NCBI GenBank assembly: GCA_030704615.1
Contig: CM060734.1
Location: 18,042,001 to 18,106,000 of the forward strand
Reading direction: 5' to 3'
Length of the DNA stretch: 64,000 nt
Source of the DNA: Takakia lepidozioides
Taxonomy: Eukaryota > Plantae > Bryophyta
In this document: piece by piece, positions 10,841 to 55,499 of the stretch
How positions within the stretch are numbered: position 1 is the first letter of the stretch
How the letters are laid out: every line of letters begins with the position of its first letter
Notes under the pieces: model-generated
Database searches by the model: none
Told to the model about the DNA's origin: nothing
The model's input: the letters and a program-made list of their open reading frames with translations, nothing else
Position numbers and translations under genes: made by a program

Positions 10841-11099
10841 TCCAACTCCTATTATTGCTTAATTACTAGACCCCTCTACACACCAACCCATCAACTTAAT
10901 AGCGCTAGGATCGACCACCCCGCACACTCACTGCCCGCTAGCTGCACTTCTATAACCCCCAATCTTCTCCAACTCCTATTATCGCTTAATTAAGTACTAG
11001 ACCTCTCTCTACACCAACCCATCAACTTCATAGCGTTAGGATTGACCACCCCGCACACTCAGTACCCACTAGCTCCACCTCTATAACCCCCAATCTTCT
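10841..11099. repeat. ~128-bp tandem duplication
   Basis: TCCAACTCCTATTATYGCTTAATTA...CACCAACCCATCAACTT...TATAACCCCCAATCTTCT occurs twice. Confidence 0.85.
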
Positions 11100-19500: not shown

Positions 19501-19680
19501 CTTATCAAGCCTAATGGCTGTACACTCCTTTGATCTGCCATTGTTACTGTGAATGGGGCTGGTTTCATGTTACTTAGACCAAGCTTCTGCCTTAATTGGT
19601 CTGTCATAATATTCACTCATGAGCCCCCATCTATCAGTACATCAGACAAGTCTGTGCTTCCAATTCTCAATTGGATTACT
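16512..19680 (-). pseudogene. Gypsy pol (PR-RT-RH-IN), disrupted
   Basis: ORF fragments 19161-19616, 18207-18980, 18023-18373, 17687-17986, 17473-17724, 16852-17373 and 16598-16855 carry canonical motifs. Confidence 0.95.
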
Positions 19681-24280: not shown

Positions 24281-27200
24281 TTACTCATAGGCACGCCTCA
24301 AAGGAAGTCCTCTCTTTCCAGGAAAGTCATCGTTGCCAGGCCCTGATGCAAGCTCTGACCGCCCAAATGATGCCACCCTGTTCATATCTCCAGACCCAGA
24401 ACCATAACCCCCTGCCTTGTTGCCGACACTAAACCCATTGTTTGGTCTATCATTACCATACCCACCCCCAGAAATGTACACATCCCTTGGAGGTGCTTCC
24501 GCAAGTCGTGAAAAGGGGGCATCTTTTGATCCATAGACACCCATACTCCCATTCATAGACCCAGGTCCATACACTTGGCCAGGACTCCTAGGGACTGGAC
24601 TGACAGGGCCACGCAGGTTGCCACTGCTGCTGCGTGTAACTCCAGACAGGAGGGAGCTAATTGTGGATGACCGGGAAAAAGCTTGTGCAAGCTCAACTGC
24701 TGAAGCTGTTGCACTGTAGCCAAATCGACCAGGCATGCGAGGGGAGGGATCCAGCAAAGCAGAAGTGGCAGGAGGGCCCTGTGGGGGCCCAGATGCTGGG
24801 CTGGGTGATGCAGGGCGACGCCAGCTGTCCTGCTTGTCAATATCTCGGCGAGGTCCATCTTGCTTGTCAGAGTCGCAGTTGCGACTCTCTTGACGGTCAT
24901 ATGGACGATTGTTTTCATATCTGTCTCGATTGTCTTGTCTGTCAAAATCTCCCCGGTCACTCCTTCGAGCATCTTTCCTTTCCAGGTCTCCACGGCGATT
25001 GTCAAACGCCACTCTGTCTGCAACCACCCGATTGCTGTCTTGTCTCTCCAAGAGAGGTGGTCCCTGCCTATCCAATGACCAGCTCCCCTGGCGCTCGAAG
25101 CGCCGACTAATTTCCTGCTTTTCATCTGCCCAGCTCTCAGACTGATCCATGCGTGCCCCTTCCTGTCGCTCTGGCTTGCTGCTGGCACTTACAGGTGGTG
25201 GTCCACTGGAGAAAGTCAATCATGTACAAGTGAGAGTACTGTTGAAGAGCAGATTGCATGAGTGTTGATGTTTCCTTCAATGTTGTCTTATCAGTCACTT
25301 TCCCATACATGATGAAGCTCCTTAGCTCTCATAGGCAGGCAGTCAAATGTAGAAACAAATGACACATGGTGAGTGATACAAAGGGTAAATCTCACAAATC
25401 CATAAACTGATCAACAGAAGTAAAAGTGACAGGCATACTAAAGCCCTGGAAACTCAGTCTCTCCAGCAAAATCACGCATAGGACATACCTGGTAGCTGGT
25501 GGGGTAAGATTGAGCTCAACGCCTGCAATTGCTGATTCATCTGCTCCACGATCCTTCAACACCTGGTAGTAACAACGCCTAATTGTCAACTACCTCCTAA
25601 CATTGACTCAGAAAACAGTCTCCAGTTAGAATGAAAATTTCATGCTAGTGGCAAAATAGTTAACCAATTAGGTGCTGCTGTCACCCCACGCCTTGTGCTA
25701 AGTAGAAGTCCCTTCAGCTACACATTTCAACATATCCAATTCGAAGACCCTTGGCATTTTACATTTGAGCATGGACAATCAACCTCTGCCAATTAGAATT
25801 CTTATATTCTACCAGAGCAAGGTAATAAAGTATGGCCACCCTTGGACACTGAGAGACCAAGTGGAGGCCTTATAGTGATAAGTGTTTTTGTACTGTGTCT
25901 GAAAATGAGTCTTTTGCAAGTCGTACTTGTCCATCCCAGCCATAAATTAAATCCACAGGGAAGAGTTGGTATACTGGAGTGTGTACTTACCAGCTCACGA
26001 GGGCGAGCACCACCAAATAGAGATTGCCTGCAAACAGCCAAGCACCACAGAAATTTGCTCCAGCCAAGATAACTCACAATGTACCACAATCGCTCTAAAG
26101 AGATGAGTCCAACCACGAGGAGCTAACAAGGATCTGTACTACACACCTCCCTGGCATGTTTGTGAAGACTATGCCATCTAACTCAGCAGAGCAATACAGT
26201 CAAAACTTGAGAGCAAAAGATGATGGCGTAAATAATAACCTCGTTCCCTTGCAGGTTGGCCCCCTTTCGGGAGTAGGCTATGTGGAACACCTAAACTACG
26301 ACTGGTCCATGAAGTCTCACTAATTACATCTCTTTCTCAACAGAGATACAATGTTTACAGAGCTAACAGCTTTCACAAGAATCGCAGATCCTGCAGCTCA
26401 ACATTCTCAGTCCAATAGTATTTCAACCACTCAAAAGTCGGCAAAACCAAAACTACATGTGGAATGCCACTTCGTAACCAATTTGTCTCTCAAGAACAAC
26501 CGTTATGGCAATGTTCAGGTCAGTTGCATACCATGATTTGCTCAGCTGTCCTCTTTGTAACAACAGCCAATATCACATTTGTTACCATAGCCAACATTCA
26601 GAGGGGGGCAGGCAATGAAAAAATCCAACTACTCACCTCACTTTCTCAGAGCCGTCAAGCTCAACTCCTGCCTCGGCTGGCTGTGACCGAGGTTTCAAGA
26701 GGAGTTTGGGGCGTTCTGCCAATCGGCTAGTTTCTTCCTCAGCATCAATGTGTGCAGATGCTTCTGTCGACACAGTGTCACTTTCCCCATTGCACTCCGT
26801 TATTATAGCTTCTGAGGACAAGACCTCAGCTGGTCGCCTGTCGTCAGCCTGGTACCTGATTTCCCTTACAATTTCCTGCAAGCAAATGCAAATGTCAATT
26901 GAAGTTGCAACCCCTTCACCACTCAGTCTCATTACTTGTATACCAACTTCTGCATGTAGTCGTACCAAGACAATTGACAAAATCCGGCTGGCTTGCAGTC
27001 CAGTCCTACAGAAGAGTACAAAGCTCTAGTCTGGCAAACAGCAAATCACATATCTGGTTGGAGCTCAGCCAACGTATCAAGGCAGAGAGCTAAATAGCTG
27101 TTGCAGTAGTTTTGAACAGCAGCTGATGGTACAGGTAGTAAGGTACTTTTTCTAGAGCATCCAACCGCCTCATGATTGGGGGCCTGTGACACAGGCCCCA

Positions 27201-30200
27201 TGCACATCAGGAAGCTCACAGCAGGACCTTAAAAGGTATAAGTCAGCAAGTTGGTTAGAGATTCTCAGAAGAACAGTAGACAAAACATAATAGCCTAGTA
27301 GCTGCCAATAGTGAATTATATATAAATTAGTACACAGGATAAGGGCAGGGATTTTAGTTTAAAATTTCAGTATCTGCCCAGCAACTGAATATACGGACCA
27401 AACCATAGCATTACAAGGCTAAACCTTGACCCGCAGATCCAGCAATAGCTAGGCAATGTCATGACATAATCAGACAATGGGAGAGAGTACCAACCTCAGG
27501 TGCTGCAGCTTCACCTGCAACAGACCCAACTGGCTCCTTCTCCACAGGCTTGGACCGAGGAAGAAGCTTCAAGCGAGGCCTTTCAGCCACTGGTTCTGGC
27601 CATCCCATTGGGGCAGCTACCCATGAGGCATCACCTGGAGAAGCCGCAGCAGAAGGATAGCTACCTCGGCTTTCTGAACGTGCACCATCAGGAGTGAGGG
27701 ATTGGCCACTCTCACCTGCATGAATGTTTCTGCTCCTTTCCCGGTCCCCACCATATGAACTCCAGTTACCATCCACCATGTACCCTCCTCGAGGTCCACC
27801 TTCGTGAAGGTAGGGACTGTGGGTCCCACTCTCTGAGGACAGAGAAACACGACCACTACCTGAGCCATATCCATTTAGTCCCCCTTCAGCACCGTATGTA
27901 CGACCACTATCCCCATATACTCCATCCGTAGAATACAGTACCCCCTGGACACCCTCTGGATGACCCCCGTGATCACCAGTGTAGCTTATGTGCCCCCTGT
28001 CAGAATAAGTGCCACGACGTGTGTTGCTGTAACCACCCCTCCCAAATTCACTATAGCTACCCCTGTTGCTATCTGCATAAACACCACCTTTTCCTGCTTC
28101 ATTGTAGTCTACTTTCTCTGAATCCCCATAGCCGCGTCGCCCAGTTTCGGTAAAACCCACAGCCTGGCCTGATTCCCCACCAACTCGACCAGTCTCTCTG
28201 GGTGCAGCCCTTCCAACCTCTGTGAATGCAATTCTCTCTGAATTACCAGTCCTCACAGTCTCATTGAACCCTCCTCCATTCCCACCCAATCTATCATCAC
28301 TATGACCAACACGGCCAGTGTCACTCAAGAAACTTCGCCCTGAATCTGCACAATTGCCCCGCCCACCAGCTTCTGTATAACCAACTCGCTTTATCTCCTC
28401 CCGATCCCTGCTGCTGTCGCTGTTTGGAATTTTACCAGATGCAGTAAAGCCAGACCTGCCCCCCTCAGGGTAAACACCCCTAGTATTCTCTCCACATCCA
28501 GCCCTTCCTGAGTCCCCATAGCCAGTCCTACCACTATCAGTGAAAGTATCCTGGCCCCACTCGGATACATATCCCCCTCGACCAACATCAGAGGGGACAG
28601 GACCCCGACGTGGGACATTAGCATAAGGGGACAGCACAGTGTCTGAAGAAAATGCACCTCGCCCACTAGTATCCAATTGGTATCCAGTTCCATAATTGTT
28701 CTGGCGGACAGGTTCAAGTATCTCTGGCCCGGAAGCAAGCCCTTGGCGGTCAGGGATGGCACCCATCCGAACTGGTTCGGACTGCCATCTTCCTGAAGAC
28801 ACCTTCTCTGCAGCAGTCACTTCAGAAATTCTTGCAGAAGTATTTTGTGACCGCCACTGGGAGCCTCCACAAGGATCATTCTGTACAGGTCTATTAAATT
28901 CATCATCCCGTCGCGCAGTCCACACATTTGGACCAGAGCTCCGAACCGCAGCAGCAGAAGGCTGCTGCTGTGATGACTGCCTCCAGTGTCGGGGGGGAGA
29001 TGACAGGTGTGACTGCTGTGTCGTATATGACAGCGAGGCCTGAGAGTAAGTTGATTGGTCATGGGACAACAGAGGGGACACAGGCTGCACCAGCTCGGAT
29101 GGATAGCCAGACACTGCCTGCTGCCTTAGCTGTGCAGTGGAGGTGGGTGGTACCTGGGAAGAGGTGGATATTCCAGATTCAGAAATGAGCTGAATACCAA
29201 TCCTATTCTAGTCTCAAAATCTTCATATACAGAAAGTAAAAAACACGTGAGGCAAAGTTTTGCCTGACCTATTAACAACCCTAGTGCAGCACATTACACA
29301 AAGACGCACTGATACTATTGTATATATAACAATCACAAAAAGTAAAGTCACACATGGATTGTTCGACCCTACCCCAACCAATTATGAATGCATCTACCAA
29401 ATGGCACACTAAGAAGGCTAACCTGCACATCACGTTTGGGCGCTCTGAAGGGAGGATCCCCCACAGAAATCAGACCATATTCATCATGGACGTAATTGTC
29501 ACTTTCATAGGCACGGCCAGGAATAACTGGAGGGAACCTATCTGAGGCAGAACCCAAGCTCCGCGGCTCAGTGAATGTGGCAGCACCGCTGTTATAACTC
29601 CCTTGGTCATCAAGGGAGAAACGATCCACAGATTTTTCATAGCCAGAGCGACGCTCCTCATACCCATGGTCTTCATAGTGGTCTGCACTGTGGCTGCTAC
29701 GAGGACGACCATCCACTGGCTTGCGCTCGTCCTCATCATAATTCCGCCCAATATTGGCAGGGTTTGGGAAATAGGATGCTTTGTCTTCAAACGTACGAAC
29801 ACCATTGGCAGACCCCTGCCTGTGGTAACCACTGCTGCGATCCCCGCTACCATAGCCCCTGCCAAGAGTAGGACTAATCCACGCCCCAGAACCTTGTCTC
29901 TCATAAGCACTTCGATCAACGGTCCTGTTGAGCACATAGTGAGACAAGAGTATAGTGCAAGTCAACATTATGAAATATAAATGTTCTGGAAGTCCTACTC
30001 ACCATAGACAACAATGACCATTAATTGAGTTGCAAGACATACATATAACAGTTGTAGAATCATAAAGAGGAAGCCAGCATAACAACAGTATCCACAGGAC
30101 AGTGCCTGTACTCACATCCCAGGAGCAGAGGGAAGAGGCAGATCAGATGGAATTGAGCCACCATGGAAGTCCTTCAGAGTCATGGCGGAGCGAGGCATTT

Positions 30201-32264: not shown

Positions 32265-33078
32265 TGCTGGGAGTCAACCCGCAGTCAAATTCACGGGTGT
32301 TGCATCGGAAAGCATTTTTGTGAGCATTGCTGATGCAGTAGAGCAGCAAAAAGATCTAGGGTATTGGCTTCCCCTGACAGGTCATGCACGCATGTTTGCA
32401 TGGCATTGGGCCTGCGTGCGATGGGACAGAGCCTAGAGGGTCTTTCCGAGGCACGAAGGTACCCACCATGGATGTCGTCAATGGTGGGCACAAGGTACGA
32501 AAGCGTGGCAGCCAAGCCTCGTAAGTAAGTTAGGCGGCTTCCAACTTCCAAGTGACGAAGAAGTGCTGGGCGGGCATCTTTGATGTGAACATGGGGATTG
32601 GCAGTAATGATATTCCGCATCTGACACGGAGCATGGGTACAGTAAAGAGGTTGGAATCCGGACCCACATTTGCGCCAATCGGAGCGCGCTTGACTGTGTA
32701 GAGAATTACGCATTACCGCATCTTGTTTCGGATTGGCCATAAGTTGATGGGCTGCATCCACATTCCCGGGGGTCCCACTGTGCCCTCGGGTTTGGAAGGG
32801 CGAAAGCTCGGAGGTTCACAATATCAGGGAAGATGAGCCGGGACTGGCCCCACAGCTTCTGCTCACACTAAGAGCGGTGTGTATAATGTGATTTGCGCAT
32901 GCTAACAATGTGTACTGGACCGGAAAGAGCATGGCTGAGTATGGCTGTGCTGCGACTACTGTAGTCTAGCTCGTGAAGACCCGGCCAGGATTTCTTAGTT
33001 AGAGACGATGGCACCTTATGTATTAGAGAACGATGGCTCCTAGTGACCGGGAGGGCGAGACCTAGGGCGAACTAGGAG

Positions 33079-33590
33079 CCATAATGCGCCTAGGGGGCGC
33101 GTTCCCTGGCGTAAAGGACTTTTGGGAGCAGATTCTGCGAGGCCCTGATTGGCTGCAGGCCATAATGAGGCAATTAATGTCAAACTGCCGATTAGGAGAG
33201 TCAAACAGCCTATTAGGAACGCAGAAAGCGCCAGCGCCGTGGAGCGTCCATCTTCTCCATCCTAATTTGCCTCAAAAACGGCAGAATCTGCCCCCAAAAT
33301 CCTTTACGTACTAATGAAGGCGCCCCCTAGGGCGCATTATGGCATCTCGGCCGGGACGAACTAGGTACCATAATGCGCCCTAGGAGGCGCCTTCCCTGAC
33401 GTAAGGGAATTTTGGGGGCAGATTCTGCGAGGCCCTGATTGGCTGCAGGCCATAATGAGCCATTAAAAGTCAAACTGCCGATTAGGAGAGTCAAACAGCC
33501 GATTAGGAATGCAGAATGCCGTGGAGCGTCGATTTTCTGCTTGCTAATTTACCTCAAAAATGGCAGAATCTGCCCCCAAAATCCTTTACG
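33079..33590. mobile_element. MITE-like foldback element (33079-33342) followed by a tandem, right-truncated second copy (~33368-33590)
   Basis: TIRs CCATAATGCGCCTAGGGGGCGC...GTAAAGGACTTTTGGGAGCAGATTCTGC / GCAGAATCTGCCCCCAAAATCCTTTACG...GCGCCCCCTAGGGCGCATTATGG. Confidence 0.75.
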
Positions 33591-35541: not shown

Positions 35542-35997
35542 CACCATGATCTCTGCATCTTGTTTATTTTCTGACAAACATTTGAAGGACTAAAATGCAA
35601 TCTCTTGAAACGTTGTCTCGAAGATAAATGGTTTTGCTGGAGATGGTACAATCTTCAAAAGCCGGAGGCAACATGTGGCTTGCAGTGGTAGGGTGAGGGC
35701 AATGATGATGATGAGAATAATGCTGTAGAATTGTTCGCTAAGCTGGAGCATATCAAGAAGGAAAGATCTGAAGAGAATTGTTAATTGATACGCTCCAGCT
35801 TAGCAAACAATTCAGCAGCATCATCCTCATCATCATCACTACCTTCACCCTAACACCCCAGCCACATTCTGCCTCCAGATTTTTAAGATTCTACCATCTC
35901 CAGCAAGACCAGTTATCCTCAAGACAATGTCTCAAGAGAGTGAGTTTAGTACTTCACATGTTTGTCAGAAAATAAACAAGATGTAGAGATCATGGTG
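35542..35997. repeat. Long imperfect inverted repeat (arms 35542-35756 and 35785-35997, 28-nt loop)
   Basis: CACCATGATCTCTGCATCTTGTTTATTTTCTGACAAACA...GCTAAGCTGGAGCATATCAA pairs with TTGATACGCTCCAGCTTAGC...TGTTTGTCAGAAAATAAACAAGATGTAGAGATCATGGTG. Confidence 0.93.
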
Positions 35998-37377: not shown

Positions 37378-38040
37378 AATGTCTGCACGTAGACCATGGC
37401 TGCAAGAGTCAATGCCAACAAAGGAATCACAATATCACCAGCTTTGGAATAAAAATCCATGGCTGGGTTTGCATATATATAACCACTGAAGTATGGGTTG
37501 AAGGGATGAAACAGGTCCTCCACCAGTCCCCAATACTCCTTTGCTTCCTTCTGCAGGACATGAGTCCCAGACATTTGCAAAGTCATTGACTTCCTTGGTC
37601 AATGCTGTTTGGTCATGGTTAGTCCTAGCAACATGAACAGCAAGCACCACCAGGAAACTCACAACATGGGTGATCCCACAGACCAAATTTACGTTGCTTC
37701 CTTTCTCTCGGGAGTTCCACTGCAGCTGATTTGAGCTCTGCCTGAGAGGCAGTTATCATACGTTCCTTCCACACCTTCTTGGCAAGGCGGATGATCAGAA
37801 GGAAAGCTACCAGCGTGAGGGATTTCACAAGAAACATGATGCTTTGGGTCCACTGGCCCTCCCTTAGCAGGTTGTATCCAGTGTCAACTTCTGTGTCTGA
37901 ATTCATCCGTGCAAACAACGCTTCTGCCCCTGTTACAACAGCAGGCAGTTGATTGACGAACCTTGAGATAACATGCAAATCTAGCCAAATATTTGTGAAT
38001 GTACCAGAAAACCACATTCTGCCCCAAGAAGTGATACTCA
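37378..38040 (-). pseudogene. DUF2921-family membrane protein C-terminal fragment
   Basis: VTGAEALF..., FLVKSLTLVAFLLIIRLAKKVW, EYWGLVEDLF, YIYANPAMDFYSKAGDIVIPLLALTLAAMVYVQ. Frameshifts and an internal deletion are present. Confidence 0.7.
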
Positions 38041-38180
38041 AATTGTAGTTAGAGCTCTGGTGTAACATGCACTCACCCAAGTCCCATGGCCTTTTTTTCA
38101 AGTAATCACAAACCCTAACCTTCAAAGTTGGAAGACAGAAATTTAAATGCCAAGCATACAGAGCGTGTACTCCTCTGTTT

Positions 38181-38820
38181 CTATATTTGGCATACATGTC
38201 CACAAGGGCATTGTCCAGAATGATAGTTGATACAATTCCAGCTTTCAGGATGTCAGCATGGACCTCTTTGCCCTTTTCCAGGGCTGCAAGGCTGGCACAG
38301 GCATGGCAAATGCAGACGAACGTGATCTGGTTGAGCTTGACCCCTTCCCGCATCATTTGCTTATAGTCTCCAATGCCTCCATCCCACCTCCATGCTGGGC
38401 AAACCCTGCGATCATCACATTCCAAGAGATTAAATTTCGCTCAGCCATACTGTTGGACACTGCCTTTGCATCCTTCATGCTCCCACACTTGGCATACATG
38501 TCCACCAGAGTAGTGTCCAGAATGATAGTTGGCACGATTCCAGCTTTCAATGGCAGCATGGACCTCTCTGCCCTTTTCCAGGGCTGCCAGGCTGGCAAAT
38601 GCCTTGAGAACACAAATGAAAGTGACCTGGTCGGGCTTCACCCCCTCTTGCACCATTTGCACATAGGTCTCCAAAGCCTCCAACCCACACCCATGCTGGG
38701 CATATCCTGCAATCATCGCAATCCAGGAGACCACATCACGTTCAGCCATCTTGTCAAACACTCTTTTTGCATCCTCAAGGCTCCCGCATTTAGCATACAT
38801 ATTGATGAGGGCACTGAATG
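38181..38820 (-). pseudogene. PLS-class PPR fragment
   Basis: SALINMYAKCGSLEDAKRVFDKMAERDVVSWIAMIAGYAQHG; ITFVCICHACASLAALEKGKEVH; frameshifts. Confidence 0.9.
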
Positions 38821-39134
38821 ATATTTGGCACAATCCCAGGCCTGGAAACAAGATAGAGATAGGTTTCCGCAAGAAGATCCACGTATCAACAGATGCTCAA
38901 AATCTCTGCTTGGGAAGGCCGGGGATGGAAGCAAAGTAAACCTGCACACCAATCTTGTATGGTAAGGATTCTCTGGAAAACTGCACACTAGACTATTGTA
39001 GATTTGATCGCATCAGTCCTGAAACAATTCTCACGCCCTCATTGTGATGTGAAGATCTGGCACTCTCTAATGTACTGTTTCTAGATATTGGCACAAGTAG
39101 GCAGACGTCCCGCACGTCCAAGAAGCTAGGTCCA

Positions 39135-39259: not shown

Positions 39260-40784
39260 ACAATACTACAAAACTATCCTTGTCATTGAACAAACCAGCT
39301 ATACAAATCAACCTGGAGAAGAGAGAGAAGAGGAACTATTTCTAACCTCCATGTGGGCCCCCAGGGCAATGAAAATACAGGAAAAAAGAAACAAACCGCA
39401 TCATGTACACATGGAAAGAAAGACAAACTAAAGAAACTTTATTACATCCACAGGGGGGCCCAAGGACCCCTGAAACAAAGTAGAACAACAAGCAAAAATG
39501 CCGAAAGTTTCCAAAAGACATTTCCCAAAGACATACCTCATGCAAGTAAGCTGCCAGACACTTCTAGTCATCAAAGCCTCTAAACAGACAGTAGCAACTG
39601 AGGTCTTCCAGACTAACCAATTCATGGAGGTCGCTTACACTTCTGGTCGATTCTGGAGTCTTGGCTTCGTTATTCCTATTTTGAACTGTGGAGACCCTGT
39701 GTCCTAGGATTGAGATGTGGCTTCTGCTGTTTGTAACTTTCCCTTGCCTTCGCTGAGGCTACATGAAGAGGTTTCCTTGTAAAATTTGACCCGGATCTTG
39801 CTCATTGCCTCTTACTAAAAAGAAAACACGAGAAATTATATAACGTTCACGGGGGGCGAGTGCACATGGGAGAGGCAGAAAAACAAAAGGAAAAACTTTT
39901 AAACGTCCACAGAGGGTCCAACTTGCATACCTGGGCATCCTCCAGCTCATTTGCATAGAATCGAGCAACTCCTCCCCACACTCAGCCCTCAGCCGGTAGC
40001 ATCCTCGCTACTGTACCTGCCATCGAAGGATAAGACCAGACTATCACTGACAAATCCTTGTAATACTCAAAAGGGGCTGCAGGATTTCAGATTTGGTGAC
40101 TGTAAATGAAGACCACCAAGCTGCATACAATGCCTGTATTTCTTTCTTTGACTTTAATGGAGTTAAGGCAAGACAACGGAAATGCCCACTAGCGGTGTGT
40201 TTCTGTTCACCAATGTCTTAGGACCATAATCATACACAGCATCAGTAAACCTTACAAGTCTTTGACTAATGGATTGCATTGCAGAAACTTTTTCCCACAG
40301 CTTACAGATCACTGAAAGGAACTCACAAGGAAGCAGATTGCTGTGTGTCCAGTGTGCTCGTTCTCTACATCTGCGCCTGAGGGCTTATAGCTGATAGCCA
40401 CGTGGCTTGCAGTAGTGCCGCCTTTTGAATCTGTTTCTTCCCGCCTGCCATATTAGGTATGCTCCTCTCACGCATCAGATGGCCTCTGTCTGTGTGTGCC
40501 TACCTTTGGACGGGTACTGTGCTTAATGGCGTGAGCAATAACAGACTTACTACTTGATTCTACTCTTCTTGTGTCAATGCTCGAGAAGGGCAAGAAGGAA
40601 CAGCATTGCTGATAGTTCAAGCTACCTCATACTTGCTCAGCAGAGCTTCTCGAGAATGGGACCAAATGCAAACTCGTCATCATATGGGGACGCTCGCCAG
40701 AAAAGAATCGAAGAAAACAAGAAACGTATGCTAGAGCTTGACCAAGTCATCCTGTCCATCCAGTGCAACAGTTGTGCGGTCATG

Positions 40785-43700
40785 TATGGAATGCCGAAAG
40801 GGCCATACTTTCTAGCAACCCATGACCACTGGGAAGATGCCCATGTCGATGCCGGTTGCCACTGGTTACCCGTGGGAGGACCGCGGTCTTGCGTGACAGT
40901 ACTTTATACCAAGTATTTATATAAATACCAAGTAAGTGTATATGGGAATTCCATACGTTCCAAATTTTTCTGTAGAATGCCCGGTTCATCGCGGGCAGGG
41001 TTCGCTCGAGGGAGGGGAAAATAGGGTGTTTTTGGTGCAGTGTTTGATTTACACATTAGCTGCAATTTAAATCAAGTGAACAAAATATATGCATAAATAG
41101 AAAAGAGATAACATTATAATGAATAATATAAACTTATAGTCAATATGCCACAATGCCATTGGTGTTGTAACATTGTATTGACGCCACACGAGGGGTAATG
41201 CTCTATATCTCCTTTCATAGTGAGCTCCTAAGAAATTAATCAATGAAAAAAAAATGTCATAAAGAATAAAAACAAGGAATGTGCCATTGAACCAACACAT
41301 CTACAAATTCCACATGTTTAATGGTACCTGATAACACTTGCAATGCTCTTGCGATCTTCCGCTATCACATAAACCAGTGTTGGTAACCAACGTGCTCTTC
41401 CTCTACAGGCCACCTGATAAATCTTTATCACTCCCTTCTCCAGACCCCACTCAGGGTCAGCATCATGCACTCTTTTAAGAATGTTTTCTTTACAACCGTC
41501 TGGCAATTCCAAGAACCTCTGAAAGAATTGTTTGGACAATCTTTCCTTCTCAGTTTCACAGGGAATTTGATTCACATCAAATTCTTTAATTCTCCAACCA
41601 CCATGATCCCACCAGATGCCTGTCACATCTGGTTGTTCAAGACTTAGTTCCCCAGTATGGTCGCCAAATGTCAGGCGACTTTTACTCACCCATCCCTTCG
41701 CTATCCGAGGTGGAAACTCCAAGATAGAAGAGTTGGATAAGCGAGTAGAGTTTGAAGGCTGGGAGGAAAGGAAGGTGAATGTTTATACTTATATGCATGA
41801 AGAGCTTGTACTGGTAAAGAATTGGATTCCAAAGGATATTCTGTGGATCAAACTCACACCAAGAACAACTTTCCAGACTTATTTGCCATATGGTTATATG
41901 GTAACGGAGACTTCTAATATAGCCAAGGGTGCATTGAAGCTTGAAAGAAACCCAGGCATATACGAGAGATACTACAGAAGAGAGTTTTGGTTACTGCCAC
42001 ATTAAAGAAATGAAAGACATGAGACATGAGTGATCAAAGAGAAGCTAGACTCCAGAGATATTCAGCAAAAAGAGAAAGTTATCTGAAAGCTAATTATCCA
42101 TATCTTTGGGAGAGAGGAATAGACATAGGGGAATCATCTGGACCTCTCACACCATTAAGATCAGAGAGTACATCACCCATACCGGAAGAACTAGAGTTGG
42201 ATGCCACTCCTTCTTTTCTTTGCAAGAAAGATTAAGGGAATTGGTACGGGAAGAAGATCAATCACGAGGTGAAAGATCTGAGGTACATCCCTGGATAAAA
42301 GATTTGACAGAAATCTTTGATAAGAGTTGGCATGAAACACCAAAAGCAGGAACTCCAGTTTCTGAAACGGAAGGTGAAGAAGGAGGAGAGGATGTGGCAG
42401 AGCCAATGGAGAGTTCAGACTCTCCAACACCATTACAGTTGAGTTACATGAGTGAAGAAGAAACCTAAGGGCAGAACTTGGAGGATGAAAATAGAGAGAA
42501 GAAATTGGAAGAGAAAAAGTATGAAGAAGTAGACCCAACAGCTGAGGTTGAGACTACAACCAGGACATCCCAACCCGTTGGACCTGGATCAAGTGGAGCA
42601 CTTGGATCACAGGCCAACGAAGATGTCGGCTCAGGGGGATCAGGCGGGCAGCCTGGATCTGGCTCTGGGGGGACAGGGAGTGTGGGAAATAGTGCAACTA
42701 GAGCTGGGAATACTGTGAATATCGTGGGGCCAGTAGCAGGGAGTGCTCAGGGGCCACCACTTGATCGGAGATCCACCACAACTACAACAGGTCCTCAAGG
42801 ACCAGCACCAGCAAGGGTGCCAGCACCTGTCAGTGGGCAGACGGTAGGGCCACAGATGGCGTTACAACCAACACTGGCAAAACCACCTTTTCCAATATAT
42901 TCAAGAAAAGGGGATCCCGATGTACGCATTAGCCAATTTGAGCACATGTGTATAGTGAACAATGAGAATGGTGATGATGCCAAGATGAGACTGTTTCCTT
43001 GTTCCCTTATCAAGAAAGCAAGTGAATGGTATGCAAGATTCCCTGATAATCATTTCCTAACCTGGAATGGCTTGAATACAGCATTCCGAAATAGGTTCAG
43101 GACAAGTAAAACTGAGGATGAAGTGTATGGAAGTTTACAACAGTTAAAGCAAAAAAAGCATGAAACTATTGAGGAGTATATAGAAAAAATGGAATTGATG
43201 ATGAAAAAGCTGGCTACTGTACCAGCACCAGGTTTACAGAAGACGTGGTTTGTGAGTGGACTAAGACCAGAGTTGCAAAAGAAAGTGGATATGTTACCCC
43301 ATAATACAGTGGAGGAGGCATTTGAAACAGCAAACAGAATTGAGCAATTGGGAATGCTCAGGAGAGAGAAAAGGGATGATGAGGACTCTGAGGATGAGGG
43401 AGCCCTCACATTCAACCGTGTTAGGGCTGCTTTGACGTGCAAAATGCCCCAATTTGAAGAGTGGATTGAATTCTATCTGACAATTCCTCAATGATGAAGC
43501 TACCATATACCTTGAATTTGTAACCGAGGGCCTTTGTCAAAAGCCTCTTCAACTGTCTAGGGTCTTTAATACTTAGAGCTTCAGCAACTTTTTTGAAAGT
43601 AACTCCTTGGTTGAGCATGGTCTGAACATAGGTCACTAGGTCTGCCATAGGCTGAACACCCTCTTCAGCCATAACTCTTCTGAAAAAGTAGTTGCAATAA

Positions 43701-44209
43701 TCACTGTGCTAGCTGCATCCAAAGAAACTAGGGTTAATTGAACTACCTAATGTTACTTCAGCTCATGATTTTCCTGGGAATTTGGCAAAAAAAACTAAAA
43801 CAACCACAACTATACTCAATCAGTCAGTCTATTAACCACTTCCTCTCTCCACCATAGCACCAAAAAGCTAACCACTCATCGAATCCTTGTCACAATCCGA
43901 GGCTGCAAACGACCCCAGCCAGAAGGAAGGTCGATGTGCATGGCGTCAAAGCTCCACAGTCCGCATTCGCCGCGACCCACCAAACTGAACCCTCAATAAA
44001 TCCTCCCAAAATTTGGAACATATGGAATTCCCATATAAATTTATTCGGTATTCGTATAACTACTTGGTATAAAGTATGGTCACGCAAGACCGCGGTCCTC
44101 CCACGGGTAACCAGTGGTAGCCGACATCTTTCCAATGGACATGGGCATCTATCCAGTGGTCATGGATGCATAACTGAGAGAGAAAGCATGGCCCTTCTGG
44201 CATTCCATA
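40785..44209 (-). mobile_element. IS3EU-like DNA transposon derivative with ~190-200 bp TIRs and 6-bp TSD GTCATG
   Basis: Ends TATGGAATGCC / GGCATTCCATA. GTCATG lies at 40779-40784 and 44210-44215. TIRs ~40785-40967 and ~44008-44209. Transposase remnants at 43672-43405 and ~41228-41130 (RQYNVTTPMALWHID). Confidence 0.8.
41340..43400 (+). mobile_element. Nested Gypsy gag-region fragment (Retrotrans_gag) with an upstream antisense ORF
   Basis: FPIYSRKGDPDVRISQF...KMRLFPCSL...ASEWY...LTWNGLNTAFRNRF...LKQKKHETIEEY...FVSGLRPEL. ORF 41318-41722 lies on the minus strand. Confidence 0.85.
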
Positions 44210-45559
44210 GTCATGTAAGAAAAGATGCCTCTCCCTGCGGTCAAGGTGTGGGTCCAGGGGACACAGACAAAGTCTCCCTCTCCGATACTTCTCTGATAAG
44301 GCTCGCATGGCAGCCATTGAAGCTGCTGAAGAAAACACCAAAGGCTTAGATAATCCCTCCATCGTGAAACCAATGTTACACTCCCATACAACGAGTGGGT
44401 TTTGGCTCGGGCTGCCAGCCGCCTTCTGCAAGGTGTACTTGCCATTACAAGATGACCGAATTATGTTGCAGGATGAGCAAGATATGGAATGGGAGACGAT
44501 CTATCTAGCGAAAAAGGTGGGACTGAGTGGGGGATGGCGAGGCTTCTTGCTGGACCATAACTTGGTAGATGGAGACGTATGCGTGTTTGAGCTCGTTTCT
44601 AGGACTAGATTCAAGATCCACATTGTAAGGGCCTCTAAGTCAACTGCATCGTATCCAGCCAGAGAGAAAGTGGAAAAGAGCTCAAGCGGGAAAAAATCAA
44701 TGACGCCTGTATCCAGGAAACTTCATAAAACAATCAAAGAGGAGATGAACCAAGAAGATGCAGCTGTTCTTGATGTGGTGCGGTGCAAGAAAGTCAAACA
44801 AGGTGCCAAAGAGGACACAGAATTGAAGGTCGTTGAGACAGCACAGTCTGGAAAACGCAAGAGACAAGTCAAAGAGGAGGAGGTTGTGGTTTGCGAGCAG
44901 AGTGACGAGGAAGGTCAAGATAGAAGGAAAAAAGACTCACAGCAAGAAAAGCGAGGTCGCTGACGTAAATGAGGTGATTGAACTAGAATCCGACCTTGTC
45001 GATGAGGACGACGTTGGGCAGTCACCAGCAGCACTTCAAAGGTTTAAACAGACCAGGGGTTCTTGCCGGACATCACAGAGGGTCAGTACACTGTCAGGGG
45101 GAGAAAACAAACCATCAGGAAGAGTTTGTAAACCATCGGAGAAGACCGGTAAACCAGCACGGAGGATCAGTAACTCATCAGGGAGGACCAGTAAGCCAGC
45201 TGCAAAATGGCTTGGTGTGAGGCAAGCTAGAGGCCCCCCTGCTTGGAAATGTTCCAGTGGGGAACTGACTGTAGCAAAAATGTGCATCCGAAGTAGAAGT
45301 GAAGGTGAGTAGATTGACAAATGGATCAGGAATCCAAGGACCAGCTCACAACATTGTGAGTTGATCACGTGTAGTTTTGCGGGGAGAGGGAAAAACCTGT
45401 GCCAAGATGGCTACTGGCAGTCATGCCCGTGTACACTTCTCTTGAGCTCTCTCTCGTTCTCTGTCGTTTTATGCACATTTTGAGCTGGATTGGAACCCAT
45501 TTCAACATCATGACACCTTCATGGTCCTCTGCGAAAATGATTCTTACATCCCAACTACT

Positions 45560-47061: not shown

Positions 47062-50000
47062 TCACACTGTACTATCTGTAAAATGGATAACCATTCTACT
47101 GAGAATTGTTATTACAATAGAAGGACAGCTACAAGAGAACCTAGGCAAGTGAGGGTACATCAAATGCAACCCCAGCCAAGAAGAAACAATGACCATGACC
47201 ACTATGGTAGGCCTGGTGGATATAACAATGGTATGGCAGGAAGAGGTAATCCAAGAGGGAATTACCAAGGCAATCCCAGAGGCAACTATCACGGTAATCC
47301 AAGGGGGAATTACCAGCCAGGGAATCAGGATTATATAAATAACCCAAAATAGACCAAAGGCGAGGACCCAATGGTGAAGAACTGTGTTACTATTGCAACC
47401 AAGCAGGACATTGCAAAGCAGCCTGTCCATTCTGGATCAGATACCAGAATGAGATGAGAGCCCTGTGAATGAGGGCCCAGCAGTGGCAGCTCACATGGTT
47501 ATGCCATGTTTTGTACCAGAAGTAAGTACAATGATAGTTATCAGAAGCAAAACTAAACTATTGTCTCCAGTGGATGAGGAAGAAGATGTTAATGAAGATG
47601 GCAATGATGTGCCTGAAGATGATGAGGCATAGAGAGATGAGAAAGAACTGCACAAGGAAGTGGCTGATACCATAAGGGAAATGCAAAAGGATATTGATAT
47701 CCCTATGGCAGATTCTTCTGACTCTGAAAGAGAAGATGAAGAAGGTGAAGATGAAGTGAAGCAAGAGGCTTCACGGGTGCAGGATAATGAAGGGGCTTTG
47801 GCTGAAGTAATATGCCAGTCCAAAGCTGAGATTACAATTGGGCAGCTATTGGCTGTGACACCCCATTGTAGACACAGGCTGTATCAAACAATCAATCAGA
47901 TTGCTCATGTGACAGAGAATACAGACCTGAACAGCAAGGTGACAAGTTATAATGGGCCAGAAACTATCATGGACTTTGATGATTCCATGTTAGTAATCCA
48001 ATTGAGAATTGGAAGCACAGACCTGACTGATGTACTGATAGATGGAGGCTTGGGAGTGAATATCATGACAGACCAATTAAGGCAGAAGCTTGGACTGAGT
48101 AACATGAAACCAGCCCCATTCACAGTAACAATGGCAGATCAAAGGAGTGTATAGCCATTGGGCTTGATAAGAGGAGTAAAGATACAGATTCAGAAGATGA
48201 TCTTTAATATCACAGTGACTGTGTTGAAAATGGATGATGTCATGGAAGCTTACTCCTTATTGCTGGGTCCACCATGGCTGAAACAGGCCAGGGTATTCCA
48301 TGACTGGAATTCCCAGTTACTGACTGTGCATGATGGGAAGCACAAGATACAGGTCACCACTAAGAAATCTAGTAGGCTACCTGCTACCAGAAGACCTCGA
48401 GGAGTCAGAGAGTATGACTGGAGGGAAGGACTTGATGAAGAGCAGGAGGCTACTCTGTTTGCTGCACATCCTGAGTGGGAGCAGGTTGCAGAAATGCAAC
48501 TCGGAGGACTAAGTTGTTTCAAGGGTATATGTTGTGGTGCAGTATCAACAACACCAATTGAGGGGGAAACAAGCAGTTACCCACCACATTTCTATGAAGA
48601 GAGAGAGGGAGAAATAGAAATCCTAGAGGAACCAGCCACTGTGAGTTTACAGGATGAAGTAGTGGCTGGATGGACTATCACAGCTGAAGAGCAAGTGAGA
48701 GAAGTCAATGTGGGAACTAAGAAGGAACCAAGAATGGTGAAAGTTGGGGCTGACTTGGAGCTGGAACTATTTGAAGAAGCTAAGAGCCTATTTATCAAAT
48801 ACAAGGATGTATTTGCATGGAGTTATGAAGACCTGAAGGGGATACCCCCTAAAATATGTTAGCATAAGATTGAGTTGGAACCAAGGTCCGTACCAATCAA
48901 ATAGGCAAGGTACATGATGAATCCCAACTATGCACAGAAGGTTGGGGAGGAGATTAAGAAGTTGGCTGAGGCTAAGTTCATATACCCGATAGAGTATACG
49001 ACTTGGCTATTACCCATTGTGATAGTTCCCAAGAAGAATGGCAAACTGAGAGTTTGTGTGAACTATAAGAAGTTGAATGATTGTACAAAGAAAGATCCAT
49101 TTCCTTTGTCATTCACAGAAGCTGTACTGGACACTGTGGCAGGCCATGAGATGTACTCATTCATGGATGGTTTCAGTGGGTATAACCAAGTACAAGTAGC
49201 TGAAGATGATCAGGGAAAGACAGCTTTCATTACTGACTGGGGTGCTTATGCATACAAAGTCCAGCAACTTTCCAGAGAGTGATAAGTGAATCTTTCCATG
49301 AGTATTTGGATGATTTCATGCAAGTGTTCTTAGATGACTTCAGCGTGTACAGCTCTAAGAATGAGCACTTGCAGAAGTTGGAATTATGTTTGGCCAGATG
49401 CAGGATGAGAGGTCTTGGTTTGAATCCAGAAAAGTGTATTTTCTGTGTCAACTCAGGGGTACTTCTGGGACACATTGTGTGTAAGAAGGGACTGTTTGTG
49501 GATCCTAGAAAGATTGAGGCCATTAAAGCATCCCCACCATAGTAAAGGTTAAGGCTCTAAGGAGATTCCTTGGACAAACCAGCTATTACAGAAGGTTTGT
49601 CAGACGATATGCACAGAAGGCAGCACCATTGAGTAAACTCTTGAAGAATGATGCAGTGTTTGCATCGACAGCTGAATGTCAATAGGCTTTTGAGGAACTT
49701 ACATTGTCAGTAACAACTACACCTGTACTGATTAACCCTCATTGGCATATGGTATTTCATGTACACTGTGATGCCTCAGAAGAAGCACTGGGGGCTGTGT
49801 TAGCCCAAAATGTCACAAGAAACATAGATTCACCTGTGTACTATGCTAGCAGATTGTTGAACAGTGCTGAGAGGAATTATAACACTACTGAAAGAGAAGC
49901 TTTGGCAATGATTTATGCAGTCAAGAAATTCAGGCATTATCTACTGGGAATGAAGTTTATGTTTTATGTGAATCATCAAGCTTTGATTTATCTGGTGAAC

Positions 50001-53000
50001 AAGCCTTTGATAAGTGGCAGGGTAGCAAGATGGTTGATTATCTTGCACGAGTTTGAATTTGAAGTTGTTTACAAGCCTGGACGTTTGCATCTTGTGGCAG
50101 ATCACTTGTCATGCCTTTCAATAGGAGAGCCCGCCACAGGAGTAGACGATCAACTGTCTGATGCCAGTTTATTCGCAGTGGAGGTGCAGGGAGCAGATGA
50201 TTGGTTAGATTGGCAGTGGCCAATCAGATACTACCTTACTCATGGTCAATGCCCACCCAGTTATGGGAAGGAGCAGAGGAAAAGAATAGCTATCAAGGCA
50301 TTACCATACACTATAATAGGTGGAAGATTGTATAAGCTAGGACCTGATGGAGTTCTTAAACGATGCTTGTACCACCATGAGGTAAATAAAGTTTTGGAAG
50401 AAGTTCATAAGGGAGTAGCTGGAGGCCATTTTGGAGAAGAGACTACCAGTAGGAAAATACTACTTGCAGGTTACTGGTGGCCTACTTTGTTTAGAGATGT
50501 ACATAAATATTGCAAGAGTTGTGATGAGTGTCAGAGGCTATGACCTTTGCAAAGATCTGGGAAGATGGCTTTGCATCCTACAATGCCTACTGAACCATTC
50601 CAGAAATGGGGATTAGACTTTGTTGGACCAATTAATCCACCAACCAGGAATACACATAACAAGTATATAATCAAGCCACTGATGATTCCGATACTACTGG
50701 TTCTGTGGAGGAAACTTTTGACATGGCTGAAGATTATGCGATGCAAATGGCGGAAAAGAAACGACGGGGATCTCCTATGCCTGAAAAGTTACCTCCCTAT
50801 CCTCCTAAGGCAGGACAGTCAAATCCATCTAGTCGACAGTCATCCCCACCAACCAACGACATGGCTCGGGCTCACACACAGAGCCCTCCGAAGGACTCTC
50901 ACCGGTAGAAGGGTGCTCGTTCACAAAGGTTTGTTGATCCTAAACAGTAAACCGTAAGGACACGGCTTTTTGAGAGGGGGAGGGATAATGTTAGAGGGCT
51001 GTTTGGGACTTAGACAGTTTTACGGGTTCTGTGGGGTACCCTTAATTTTGCGCAGACCTACAGTGGTAGACTCAGACCAATACAGACCTTAGGGGTGACA
51101 GACACAGGCCTTAGGGGTGGTAGACAGCCTTACACAGCCTGGCACAGCCTGACACAGCCTAACACAGTCAATCACAGCCTATCACAGTCTATCACAGCCC
51201 GACACAGCTCGACATAGCCAGTCACAGTCTGACACGGCCAGTCACAACTCGGCATAGTCACAGCCCGACACAGCTTGGCACAGCCCGTCACAGTGTTCAC
51301 AGAGAACGATTGTCATTGGCAGAGAATGACTGTGTGGGAACGACATCTGCAGAGGGAACGTGCATTCCGTCTTAGATGACAGTTAGTTAGTTGGGCAGCT
51401 TTAGTGTCCTCCAACTCTTTCTGCAACTTGAGGTTGGCCTCCACATCCACCCTATTGGCACACTCAGTGGCAATTCTTGTCTCAAGCTCTTGCTTGAGCT
51501 CCTCCCGCAATGCTGCCAATTGAGTGGAATGAACATGAGTCTTGACAAAGGTGCCCAATAGGTTGAGAGTCCTGCTTATGGAACTCATAAGCATGGGTCT
51601 TCATGGAGAACCTGCTGCTGTTCTTCCTGATTCTCTACGGTTTGATGTTTCACAAACCAATCAGGCCATGATCACAGATTCGACCATCACAAGAATGTAG
51701 TGATCTGCAACTTTTTCCTGAGCATCCTCATCTTCCACAGGTGCTGCAGTACCCTTGCCCTTTACCTCTTTAACCTCCGCCACAGGTTTTGGCATAACTT
51801 GCACAACAGGGAGCAGACTCTGATCTTTGGTACCATGGGTTGACCATGCAGAGAGACTCTGCATTTTGGTACCATGGGTTCTGCCACTACTTGCTCTGTA
51901 GTGGGGATGTCCAACCCCTCTCTCTCCACAGTAAGAGGCTCCGGTGTAACAACATGTCCGGTCTGAGTTACCACTGGGGCAACCTAGTCAACTTGTTTTG
52001 CTGGCCGTGGTACTGAGGTGACTTCTTCCTCCCTCTCTAATGGCCGTGCTTCCAGTAATAACAGTATATTGTGCGGCTGCACCCCCATCCTGTGTAGGAG
52101 CTATGGAAACATCATAGTGAGGGTTCCTTGCGGCCAGTGGATCCGCCATTACAGTTGCGTCCCTTTTCTCTCTCTTGGATTGGTGCTGCCTCTCTAAACC
52201 TCCTTCACCTTGTGAAAGGCCTTGCTCCTCAACTGCAATTGTGGCTGCCTCAAACACCCCCATTACTTTGCATTCTTGCGCATCAAGCAAGCAAGAATCA
52301 AAGATGATCTGTGCAATAATTGGGCCAGACACAATAATTGGGGACTTGGCAGTAGTATTTTGTAATCGTTTCATCTCCTCCAGCAGACCATTGTGCATCA
52401 TCTCCGCCCAAGCTACATCCTCTCCTCTCAAAGCTTTCAGAACCTCCTCCGTAAAAGATCTGCTAAGATACTGTTGGTTCTGTTTCATGACAAACAGAAT
52501 GTTTAGTATCTGGCCAATCTCCCTCAATCCTGGATACTCGGCTTTGGTGCAAGTGAATCCCTGGTTCCTGAAGAAACTCATTTCTTGGAAAAAATCCCGT
52601 ACTTGCAATCTTGCCCTATGTTCATCCACGCTCACATTACCATATGGTAATTCAAAAAACTGTTGCAAGTACTGCGAAGTAACTTGTATATCTACGCCCT
52701 TCACCTGTGTAACTCCCGTCTTTGGCTCAAAGTTCTTGATGAACTGGATCATCAATTCCCGTTGATGCAAAAACCACTATTTGCGCAACAATCCCTCCAA
52801 CCGCAATTCCTTCAGCATCTGCACTGCCTGTGGTGTGGCGATTGTTTGCCTCTGTAAGATCGTCGTGCTCTTCACTCGTAGATCCTCCATATCTCTAATT
52901 CGCTTCATCCCGGACAAACGCCTTGTTTGGAATAACTGCATGAAAGCTTGTAATGCGTATAGCATGAAAGTGTGATTAGCACAGAATGGAACAGGCAAGT

Positions 53001-55039
53001 GGGTGTAAGCCTCCGGGGCTTGCAAATAATGAGTGAGAGAGAAAGTACTTTCGACCTGTCCTTCCTTGCGCCACTGCGTAAGAAGTGTTGCTAGTGTATA
53101 ATCCGTGATATTCGCCATAGCTACAAAGCTATAGCTTTGATTGCCCCTCCCGTCGAGACACTGATTATCCGAAATAACACCTATTTTTCCGCTCATAATC
53201 TTCTTAATTTCTTGTTCTTGTTTCTTGAATGGAGTCTCTTGTACAAAATTCACGTTGTTGATTGGCCGTTGCCTCATTAGGTAACTTCTCATTTTTACCC
53301 TAATCTGTTCACATTCCATCTTGGAATGACCACTATGACTGCATATGTGGCAAAGGTTCCCCTTTGCTGGACGCGTAAAGTGTTCCGTTACCTGTCCTCT
53401 TGATGCATTAATGGGCTCATAATAAGTTTCGGCTGATGTACCGGGTAGGTACTTTGTCGGCCCTGTTTGTCTTCTTGTGTGATGACGCTCGTTATTGCAG
53501 TACATGCAATGCGGAGTGCTTTGCCCCTTAGGCCACGTGTTTGAATTCAAACACTCTCCCGTCTCCCTCTGTCCACGTGACACATTCTCCGAGTTTGACT
53601 TCCAAACTGTCTTTACACTTACCGGCCACTTAACTAACGTTAACTCGTGTCCATTTGTCATTGCCCCTTTGGACTGTGCGACCTGTGTAGGCTGTGTTGC
53701 CTGTGTTGGGCTGTGACAAGCTGTGATATGCTGTAATAGGCTGTGGTGGGCTGTGATATGCTGAGTTAAACTGTGGTGGACTGTGATGGCTGTGTGAACA
53801 CTTGTGTTCTCTACTATGGCCATACACATTCGGCTTTATGTCAAGTGCTTCATGCTCCGATGGTGCTATTGGAGTAGTCTGTGTCTGCATCTGTGTTTCA
53901 AGATGCAAATCATGCTGCAATGGTCTATCATGGATACCACTGTATCCCTTCAACTTATTGGCATTGACTCTACCAAGCATCTCTTTGTTAATGGTTTGTA
54001 ACATAGCTGTGTTGTTATCATACATCTTCTGTGTGACATAAGGTCCTTTCCATGGTGATTTAAGCTTAGAAGCTTTAATCTTTCCCTTCTTCTGCAACCT
54101 CAGTACCAAATCACATGTCTTAAAAGTCTTCAATTTACCTTCATGAAACTGATCCTTCCTCTTCATCTGAATTCTAGTCATGTTATCTGCTACATCAGCA
54201 CGTACTTCTTCCACATGATATAGTTCATGTTTCCTTACTTTAATTGAATCCTCCAATTCCATTCTCCTCCCCCATTCAGTTTTTATGGTAGGTAATAAGA
54301 ATTCCACTGGAAATAAGGCTTCCATACCATAAACTAATTGGAATGGTGTATACTTGGTGGTGACTTTATATGAAGTCTTGTATGACCACAAAGCTGTCAA
54401 CAGCTTTGTATCCCAGTCTGTCATGTTCGCATTGACTATTTTAGCCAAGATAGTGCATAGTATTTTGTTGGTGGCCTCTGCCTGCCCATTGCCCTATGGG
54501 TAATAGGTTGTACTCTTCCTGTGCACAATCATGAACTCCTTAGTCAATAGTTCAATGGTCTCATTAATGAAATGACTTCCCTGGTCACTGATAAATTCCA
54601 GGAGACAGCCAAATCTTGTGAGAATGTTCTCATATAGGAACCTTGTTGTGGACTTAGCTGTGTTGTCCCTCAGAGCCTTAGCTTCCACCCATTTCCGTGG
54701 TGTTACAGATGAATGATCTCAGGTTACGGGTGCAGAACATTGCCACAACCACTACAGACAATGTCTATAGTCGGATAGCTGAGTTACAGGAGGATGTAGA
54801 AGGGCTGCAGACTCAAGTGGATGACTTGAGCTCCAACATTGACAAAAGGGCTTTTATTCCTGAGGAACAGCTGATGGCTACTTATTTGCACGTAAGGCCT
54901 TTGATTTTCCAATCTTCAGCACAAGAAGTGCAGGACTTGCCAACATCAAGAGGGACTGTGGCAACAACATCACAACAACCACACCAGGTCGACAGTGTTG
55001 ATACCATGGCACTGCAGCAATCATTGTCTGAGGTTTGGG
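47062..55039. mobile_element. Copy 2 of the Gypsy family at 11.5-19.7 kb, rearranged into four segments
   Basis: 47062-50672 (+): gag knuckle CTICKMDNHSTENC, PR LIDGG, RT FLDDF, RH, IN N-terminus. 50673-51395 (+): extra-ORF end, PPT and partial LTR from 50989. 51396-54692 (-): IN core to extra ORF. 54705-55039 (+): extra-ORF fragment. Confidence 0.9.
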
Positions 55040-55499
55040 GTGATGCTTCTTTTAACCCATAGACAAGCTAAAATCTTGAGGAAAGGTGGCACTGGCCTAT
55101 CACATTCACCCCCCTCCCCAACCATCCTATCCAAACACCCTTTCCATTCTTCAGGCAGGAGAACCCTAGTACTTCATTCAAACATTTTTGAGATACTCAC
55201 CGAATTTTGGATCCTGACATTGGTTGAAGACACAGTAAAGGGAAGTTTTTCCCCCTTGTTTCCCTCCTGCCACACAGAAAACAGGTACATGAATCATGAG
55301 CTCAGGACTCCACAAAGCAAGGCCCTCTATTGCTTTGTTTATCCTCCTTCCCCTCCTCCTACAAGCATAGGAAATGAGTACAGCATTCCTTATCACTCCC
55401 TCATGCAAGGGTTTGAACAAGGGATAGCCCACATGCCTTGGCAAGGATGTCATTGGTCATTATTGCATCATTCTCGTAAGTCAGTAGCACATCTGTCAA

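Follow-up and report, generated by a model that had tools for sequence, protein, structure and literature searches.

IS3EU and GingerRoot are two names for eukaryotic DNA transposons of a single lineage, which is supported by a bootstrap value of 99% (Kojima and Bao 2023, PMC10045372). As far as the accessible parts of the published accounts go, IS3EU elements are defined by TA..TA ends and a target-site duplication (TSD) of usually 6 bp (PMC10045372), and those of rust fungi have TAYGG..CCRTA termini (Kojima 2025, PMC12730594). In Selaginella lepidophylla, 77 intact GingerRoots were reported, 72 with TA..TA ends, together with GC-rich TSDs of 6 bp; 22 of the 77 carry fragments as cargo, and the Asp-Asp-Glu (DDE) region is kept in 6 of these 22 (Cerbin et al. 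2019, PMC6839031). The GingerRoot DDE region was found in 18 species of Bryopsida and 3 of Lycopodiopsida and was reported as absent from ferns and seed plants (PMC6839031), and GingerRoot is counted as one of eight plant DNA-transposon superfamilies (PMC9804982). Here we analyzed a stretch of 64,000 nucleotides from contig CM060734.1 (hereafter the window), in which an element located at positions 40785–44209 interrupts a B3 gene. This element is very probably an IS3EU/GingerRoot DNA transposon copy that has lost part of its interior, is non-autonomous and resides in a duplicated bryophyte B3 gene. A first-pass annotation had assigned the element to the IS3EU type, and the ends, the TSD and the transposase remnants bear this out. 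The same annotation regarded the find as surprising in view of IS3EU lying outside the standard plant superfamilies; this does not hold, since GingerRoot represents the same lineage and is known from mosses and lycophytes.

The element measures 3,425 bp, starts with TATGG and ends with CCATA, in agreement with the TAYGG..CCRTA form of the TA..TA termini. Its left terminal inverted repeat (TIR; 40785–40968, plus strand, 184 bp) begins with TATGG at the same terminal base as in other copies, and its right TIR (44008–44209, minus strand, 202 bp) terminates in CCATA. Aligned to each other, they agree at 162 positions and differ at 22, with 18 gap columns (blastn E 3e-50), and both are well above the 30 bp expected as a minimum for long TIRs of this lineage. 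Sequence comparison showed that the element is flanked on either side by the hexamer GTCATG (40779–40784 and 44210–44215), the chance of a hexamer match between two random sites of the window being 0.00036. Because TA comes directly after the right hexamer, two other readings are conceivable, an 8-bp direct repeat (GTCATGTA) or a TGG..CCA element flanked by a duplicated TA. The empty site bears on this point. It was found in B3 paralog contigs, namely a 1,187-nt contig from the RNA-labelled run X10 and a contig from X5, which match the left B3 flank as far as 40786 and then pass to the right flank, with GTCATG present once. In addition, contigs of other copies diverge from the element at 40785 (X5 and X10) or 40784 (two contigs of X1), and therefore the TA is part of the element and the TSD is 6 bp long. 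The termini, long TIRs and perfect 6-bp TSD of the first-pass annotation, including the TSD length that it proposed to check, are thus confirmed for this copy by the TIR alignment, the empty site and the ends of other copies.

These observations also bear on the possibility that a MULE-, hAT- or Tc1-type element with an 8-bp or TA TSD has merely taken up a GingerRoot fragment as cargo. An 8-bp TSD is typical of hAT elements, and GTCATGTA is indeed present on both sides, as is a TA flanking TGG...CCA. Long TIRs are typical of MULEs as well, the TSDs of which range from 7 to 12 bp (PMC10741241). However, an 8-bp TSD would make the ends asymmetric, a TA TSD predicts two GTCATG at the empty site where the paralog shows one, the other copies end at 40785 and at CCATA, and no other transposase was found inside the element, a Pfam scan of 10 open reading frames (ORFs) giving no MULE or hAT match. 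We give this explanation almost no credence. Tc1/mariner as such, with its TA TSD, was ruled out by the single GTCATG of the paralog, and Ginger1 and Ginger2, which have TG..CA termini, were ruled out by the TA..TA ends.

Further family members were seen as single ends. The terminal 22-mer of the element is shared by two JGI metagenome loci, which contain one element end each and no transposase; both end at CCATA and have different GC-rich flanks. Positions 1–135 of one locus (L001) and 437–525 of the other (L002) represent related family ends, which are 86% alike to each other over 89 bp and 76–78% alike to the TIR in the window over some 57 bp. No further copy of the terminal 22-mer was found within the window with up to 5 mismatches allowed. 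In contigs from X1 and X2, the left TIR (at 40832) is joined to the N-terminal region (at 43705) across 39 other letters, which suggests that the family has a shorter or rearranged member. A further contig record passes from 40840 back to 40784, resembling tandem or self-nested ends.

Four colinear pieces of a transposase are found on the minus strand of the element (43672–43451, 43463–43398, 41361–41328 and 41227–41138), and together these cover the protein from an HTH (helix-turn-helix)-like start through the first catalytic Asp. The first piece (43451–43672) encodes the HTH-like N-terminus, for which the Pfam match to PF00165 is weak (E 0.0028, under the cutoff). The second piece (43398–43463) lies past a frameshift, and the third (41328–41361) adjoins a captured retrotransposon fragment and is colinear with a related protein, P0002. 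Next comes a putative GT..AG intron of 100 bp (41228–41327, minus strand); the proteins P0002, P0031 and P0034 read across this point uninterrupted. The fourth piece is an exon (41138–41227) with the codon for the first catalytic Asp (41141–41139) at its end, and it matches the IS3EU/GingerRoot block in Fig. S1 of PMC10045372, as far as that source was available. The remaining stretch up to the left TIR (40969–41137, minus strand) would comprise the start of a second intron, with a donor-like ATAAGT at 41137, one base past the Asp codon, and subterminal DNA; it holds no DDE core or C-terminus. The remnants noted in the first pass, an HTH-like N-terminus and a motif preceding the first Asp, correspond to 43451–43672 and to a peptide at 41139–41225 (minus strand), respectively, and were therefore correctly recognized, the Pfam support for the HTH being weak.

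Relatives of these pieces place them in the lineage. A 40-residue query around the Asp exon matched two proteins, P0001 and P0002, among three candidates. P0001 (77%, E 8e-9) has the same Asp exon followed by a core that matches PF24764 (rva_4, E 1e-20), and P0002 is continuous across both the fragment site and the first putative intron. When P0002 was used as the query of a HMMER search against 1.84 billion proteins, 30 matches including P0002 itself were obtained, 17 of which match the N-terminal piece, 16 the piece past the frameshift (tblastn) and 9 the Asp exon. A hidden Markov model (HMM) was built from 29 of these relatives, the repeat-rich P0057 having been dropped beforehand. Three pieces of the element came out at the top of 2,575 six-frame peptides (E 5e-24 for the N-terminus, 3e-13, and 7.5e-7 for the piece past the frameshift), and the piece adjoining the fragment was matched weakly from HMM position 101 on (E 0.27). 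The match of the Asp exon to this model arises partly by construction; that of the N-terminus is independent of it. The W-H-x-D-x-Y-D-K-L start of the core, which is characteristic of the lineage, is represented in the window up to its Asp and continues in contigs from RNA-labelled runs and in P0001. As expected for IS3EU and GingerRoot, no conserved HHCC motif was seen upstream of the core in the N-terminal pieces and the 29 aligned relatives; the N-terminus is HTH-like instead, with weak HTH matches. The core of P0001 has no tblastn match anywhere in the window; the part following the first Asp is absent and the window copy is therefore non-autonomous. Pfam gave no match for the Asp exon alone, and direct BLASTP comparisons of P0001 and P0002 with the N-terminal piece gave spurious matches only. 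For the Asp exon, the ESM Atlas gave clusters of PF24764 with values of 0.83 and 0.78; for the N-terminus, it gave HTH clusters at 0.79–0.80, below unnamed clusters at 0.82–0.85; with all values below 0.9, these are leads only.

The first catalytic Asp also marks a common break among the relatives. All of the 13 relatives (out of 30) that reach the Asp motif lose the alignment there, and none of the 29 that were scanned matches PF24764, which would fit a shared intron at this point. The break is likely to be an intron common to the relatives. Two contigs (1,333 nt from X10 and 839 nt from X11) that originate from RNA-labelled runs of different studies match 40 of the 46 letters of 41140–41185 and then go on in frame with D-S-Y-D-K-L-T-M-Y-G, according to a hand translation of 30 loose letters; the counterpart in Selaginella SL_GR-005 is D-S-Y-D-K-L-S-M-Y-G. 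These contigs represent either a spliced transcript or an intron-less relative, the RNA label of the runs being provisional; a search of sequencing runs listed no RNA run with a match.

We also examined to which branch of the lineage the family is closest. The 13 window residues up to the Asp do not discriminate, since by eye 9 of 13 agree with SL_GR-020 and 8 of 13 with IS3EU-1_SK. Over 59 positions of the P0001 core, a hand count gave 32 identities with SL_GR-005, about 21 with each of two animal IS3EU elements and about 16 with IS3EU-1_PGra of a rust fungus, which corresponds to a likeness of about 54%, 36% and 27%, respectively. By these counts, the P0001 core appears nearer to Selaginella GingerRoot than to animal or rust-fungus IS3EU. 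This is relevant for the idea of a recent horizontal transfer of an IS3EU element to the plant, with a fungus or an animal as donor. The TAYGG..CCRTA terminus is that of rust-fungus IS3EU (PMC12730594), and the S-Y-D-K-L motif occurs in oyster and beetle IS3EU (PMC10045372), at least in the accessible portions of these reports. Yet the P0001 core is least like the rust-fungus element by hand count and has residues of the GingerRoot type, such as the D-F-A-A-E-H that SL_GR-014 and SL_GR-069 also show at the second Asp. Moreover, the N-terminus is common to about 30 divergent relatives, many of which break off at the same places, resembling introns; this pattern is suggestive of an old radiation. 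The lineage was already known in mosses and lycophytes (PMC6839031). A recent transfer is therefore very improbable, and the fungal origin suggested in the first-pass annotation finds no support in this hand comparison, in which the nearest relative with a full core, P0001, is closest to Selaginella GingerRoot. Vertical inheritance of the family in non-seed plants is likely.

The host was judged from one neighboring gene (24293–29923). The best named matches of an exon of this gene are liverworts (72, 66 and 64%), followed by mosses, lycophytes and ferns (28 matches among 291 candidates). A tree of 175 columns gave no resolution. In a tree of 11 rows and 1,144 columns, which left out hornworts and seed plants, the window is on an early branch beside the mosses (SH-aLRT, a Shimodaira-Hasegawa-like approximate likelihood-ratio test, 84), with the ferns far off; a grouping of the window with liverworts was rejected (approximately unbiased test, p-AU 0.017, 1,144 columns). 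The host is thus a bryophyte and lies inside the published IS3EU/GingerRoot range, GingerRoot being known from bryophytes and lycophytes. No report of IS3EU or GingerRoot in liverworts or hornworts turned up in the literature searches made here, although Repbase and the species tables of PMC6839031 may list some, and a small range extension of GingerRoot is therefore possible.

Several points weigh against the assignment of the element to IS3EU/GingerRoot in a bryophyte. The comparison with the reference elements was made by eye and by hand counts over 59 positions. The window copy retains one of the three catalytic residues, so that the family call rests on relatives, and a word search with the 83-residue N-terminus against longer proteins gave none among 54 candidates. 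The 6-bp TSD is read from a single pair at this copy, the other contigs and loci showing one end each. In addition, both TIRs are longer than the 100–150 bp of Selaginella GingerRoots, and the three top matches of the neighboring gene are liverworts, whereas the larger tree places the window beside mosses.

The interior of the element is largely occupied by a fragment of 2,036 bp (41362–43397, plus strand) from a Ty3/gypsy-type retrotransposon of very high abundance. Its first 376 bp (41362–41737) are inverted relative to the rest, as indicated by an opposite-strand joint and by loose contig ends at 41737/41738. The inverted part would contain about 70 bp of a long terminal repeat (LTR)-like end (41669–41739) with an adjacent TGG motif resembling a primer-binding site, and then a leader. 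It is followed by a truncated gag reading frame (42469–43397, plus strand; PF03732 E 6e-13, PF19259 E 9e-8). The summed contig depth of the fragment is 0.9–1.3 million compared to 50–70 in unique contigs, a difference of about four orders of magnitude that does not represent copy number. In one contig, 41361 and 43398 are connected through three other letters, which means that copies without the fragment exist. The gag fragment noticed in the first pass is thus present, but as part of a larger, likely captured piece rather than as a normal nested insertion. A normal nested LTR retrotransposon that later eroded from both ends would be in line with the extreme abundance of this family and with the general frequency of nested LTR insertions. 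Nevertheless, the retrotransposon family extends past both junctions, neither of which is an LTR end, no TSD was found at the junctions, and the host lost just 3 bases relative to the copy without the fragment. Together with the inversion and the 1–2-bp microhomologies at the joints, this would call for two precise erosions, each sparing the host DNA, and we consider such a history less simple and rather unlikely. Since the ends are truncated, the fragment is internally inverted, the joints share 1–2 bases and a TSD is missing, the simplest reading is that the fragment is filler, likely captured by template switching during break repair. The LTR-like end recurs in the window at 11452–11522 (95% over 65 bp), where it adjoins an ORF (10990–11457) that has no Pfam match. 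This ORF contains a 'CGDIHPNPGP' motif, which we take to be of the kind seen in 2A-like sequences of LINE elements.

The B3 gene is represented on the plus strand by a 5' coding part (40656–40778) and a 3' coding part with the B3 domain (44216–44963; PF02362 E 1e-16). As noted in the first pass, the element lies inside this gene; we can add that the gene copy is a frameshifted duplicate. The paralog contig is longer than the window copy by 26 bases at 40739 and 2 bases at 40631, and a further 5 differences separate the two in about 180 aligned bases. The window copy is doubly disabled, because its halves share a frame only when the 26 missing bases are present and because the element is inserted between them. 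In contigs from X1 and X2, the B3 flanks upstream (40486) and downstream (44340) are joined on opposite strands, and both flanks have a raised depth; this reads as several B3 paralogs, at least one of them rearranged.

Enzymes of the IS3/IS481/integrase DDE type bind the TIRs, excise the element and transfer its strands to a staggered target cut, repair of the gaps yielding the TSD. By analogy, the transposase would have bound the TIRs via its HTH, cut the target 6 bp apart and inserted the element by cut-and-paste into a coding exon of the duplicated B3 gene, leaving the 6-bp duplication. The copy may have been mobilized in trans, or may have decayed in place, and the Ty3/gypsy-type fragment was probably copied in as filler during the repair of a break.

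Other parts of the window contain further decayed sequences. A retrotransposon remnant at 4004–7932 (plus strand) encodes a C5 cytosine methyltransferase (PF00145, E 1e-9) directly 5' of the reverse transcriptase (PF00078), with a PHD finger (PF00628) last, and fits the streptophyte 'Gypsy-DNMT3' elements as outlined in the available part of bioRxiv 10.64898/2026.05.21.726589. Rearranged copies of a long gypsy-type element are located at 11986–19680 and 47992–55059, with blocks that are 80–94% identical and extra ORFs without a Pfam match. Decayed tandem PPR-like repeats, presumably of the PLS type, are found at 40–3100 and 37625–38896 (minus strand), with frameshifts and internal duplications. 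At 20700–22600 (plus strand) there are exons with stops and frameshifts, which from their motifs we take to be xanthine-dehydrogenase-like and which likely represent a pseudogene; the one ORF scanned had no Pfam match. Lastly, 33065–33590 contains a direct repeat about 240 bp long that includes an inverted part, and 35542–35997 forms a 456-bp imperfect palindrome (83%).

The element leaves the known range and mechanism of IS3EU/GingerRoot unchanged, and its importance is modest. A superfamily that has been little sampled gains a bryophyte family whose 6-bp TSD is verified at an empty site, and the two names, IS3EU and GingerRoot, come together at a single locus. The likely intron after the first catalytic Asp may account for poor annotation, and the related coding sequence in two RNA-labelled runs provides a lead to an active element. 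A bolder proposal, which at present seems doubtful, is that the family is a GingerRoot sub-lineage that is still transcribed, may be active and has an intron just behind its first catalytic Asp, and that one of its copies holds an LTR end, a primer-binding site and gag. If so, screens based on ORFs or on the DDE motif would miss such transposases because of the intron, so that their plant range would be underestimated, and the acquired parts would be raw material for chimeras of DNA transposons and LTR retrotransposons, about which Cerbin et al. (PMC6839031) have speculated.

Compared with known systems, the captured fragment resembles Ty3/gypsy LTR retrotransposons in its Retrotrans_gag and Ty3_capsid matches, its LTR-end-like TG/CA with a motif similar to a primer-binding site and its very high abundance, and differs in having no pol, no intact LTR and no TSD and in being partially inverted. 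With the IS3EU elements of Repbase (PMC10045372 and PMC12730594, in the parts available) the element and its relatives have in common the ends, the 6-bp TSD, the W-H-x-D-x-Y-D-K-L motif, the lack of HHCC, a first Asp at 100–300 residues from the start and PF24764 in the nearest relative. In contrast, animal and fungal cores are more distant from P0001 by hand count, and no second gene (alpha-kinase or TET/JBP) was seen in the element. The GingerRoots of Selaginella and mosses, as described in the accessible text of PMC6839031, share with it the TA..TA ends, the 6-bp TSD, long TIRs, an integrase-like DDE transposase, the uptake of cargo with loss of the DDE region and a non-seed-plant host. Unlike this element, which is 3.4 kb long (1.4 kb without the fragment), lies inside a gene copy and has a retrotransposon piece as cargo, those of Selaginella are 3.9–12.9 kb long and avoid genes; two putative introns interrupt the transposase here, whereas that text mentions introns solely for captured genes.

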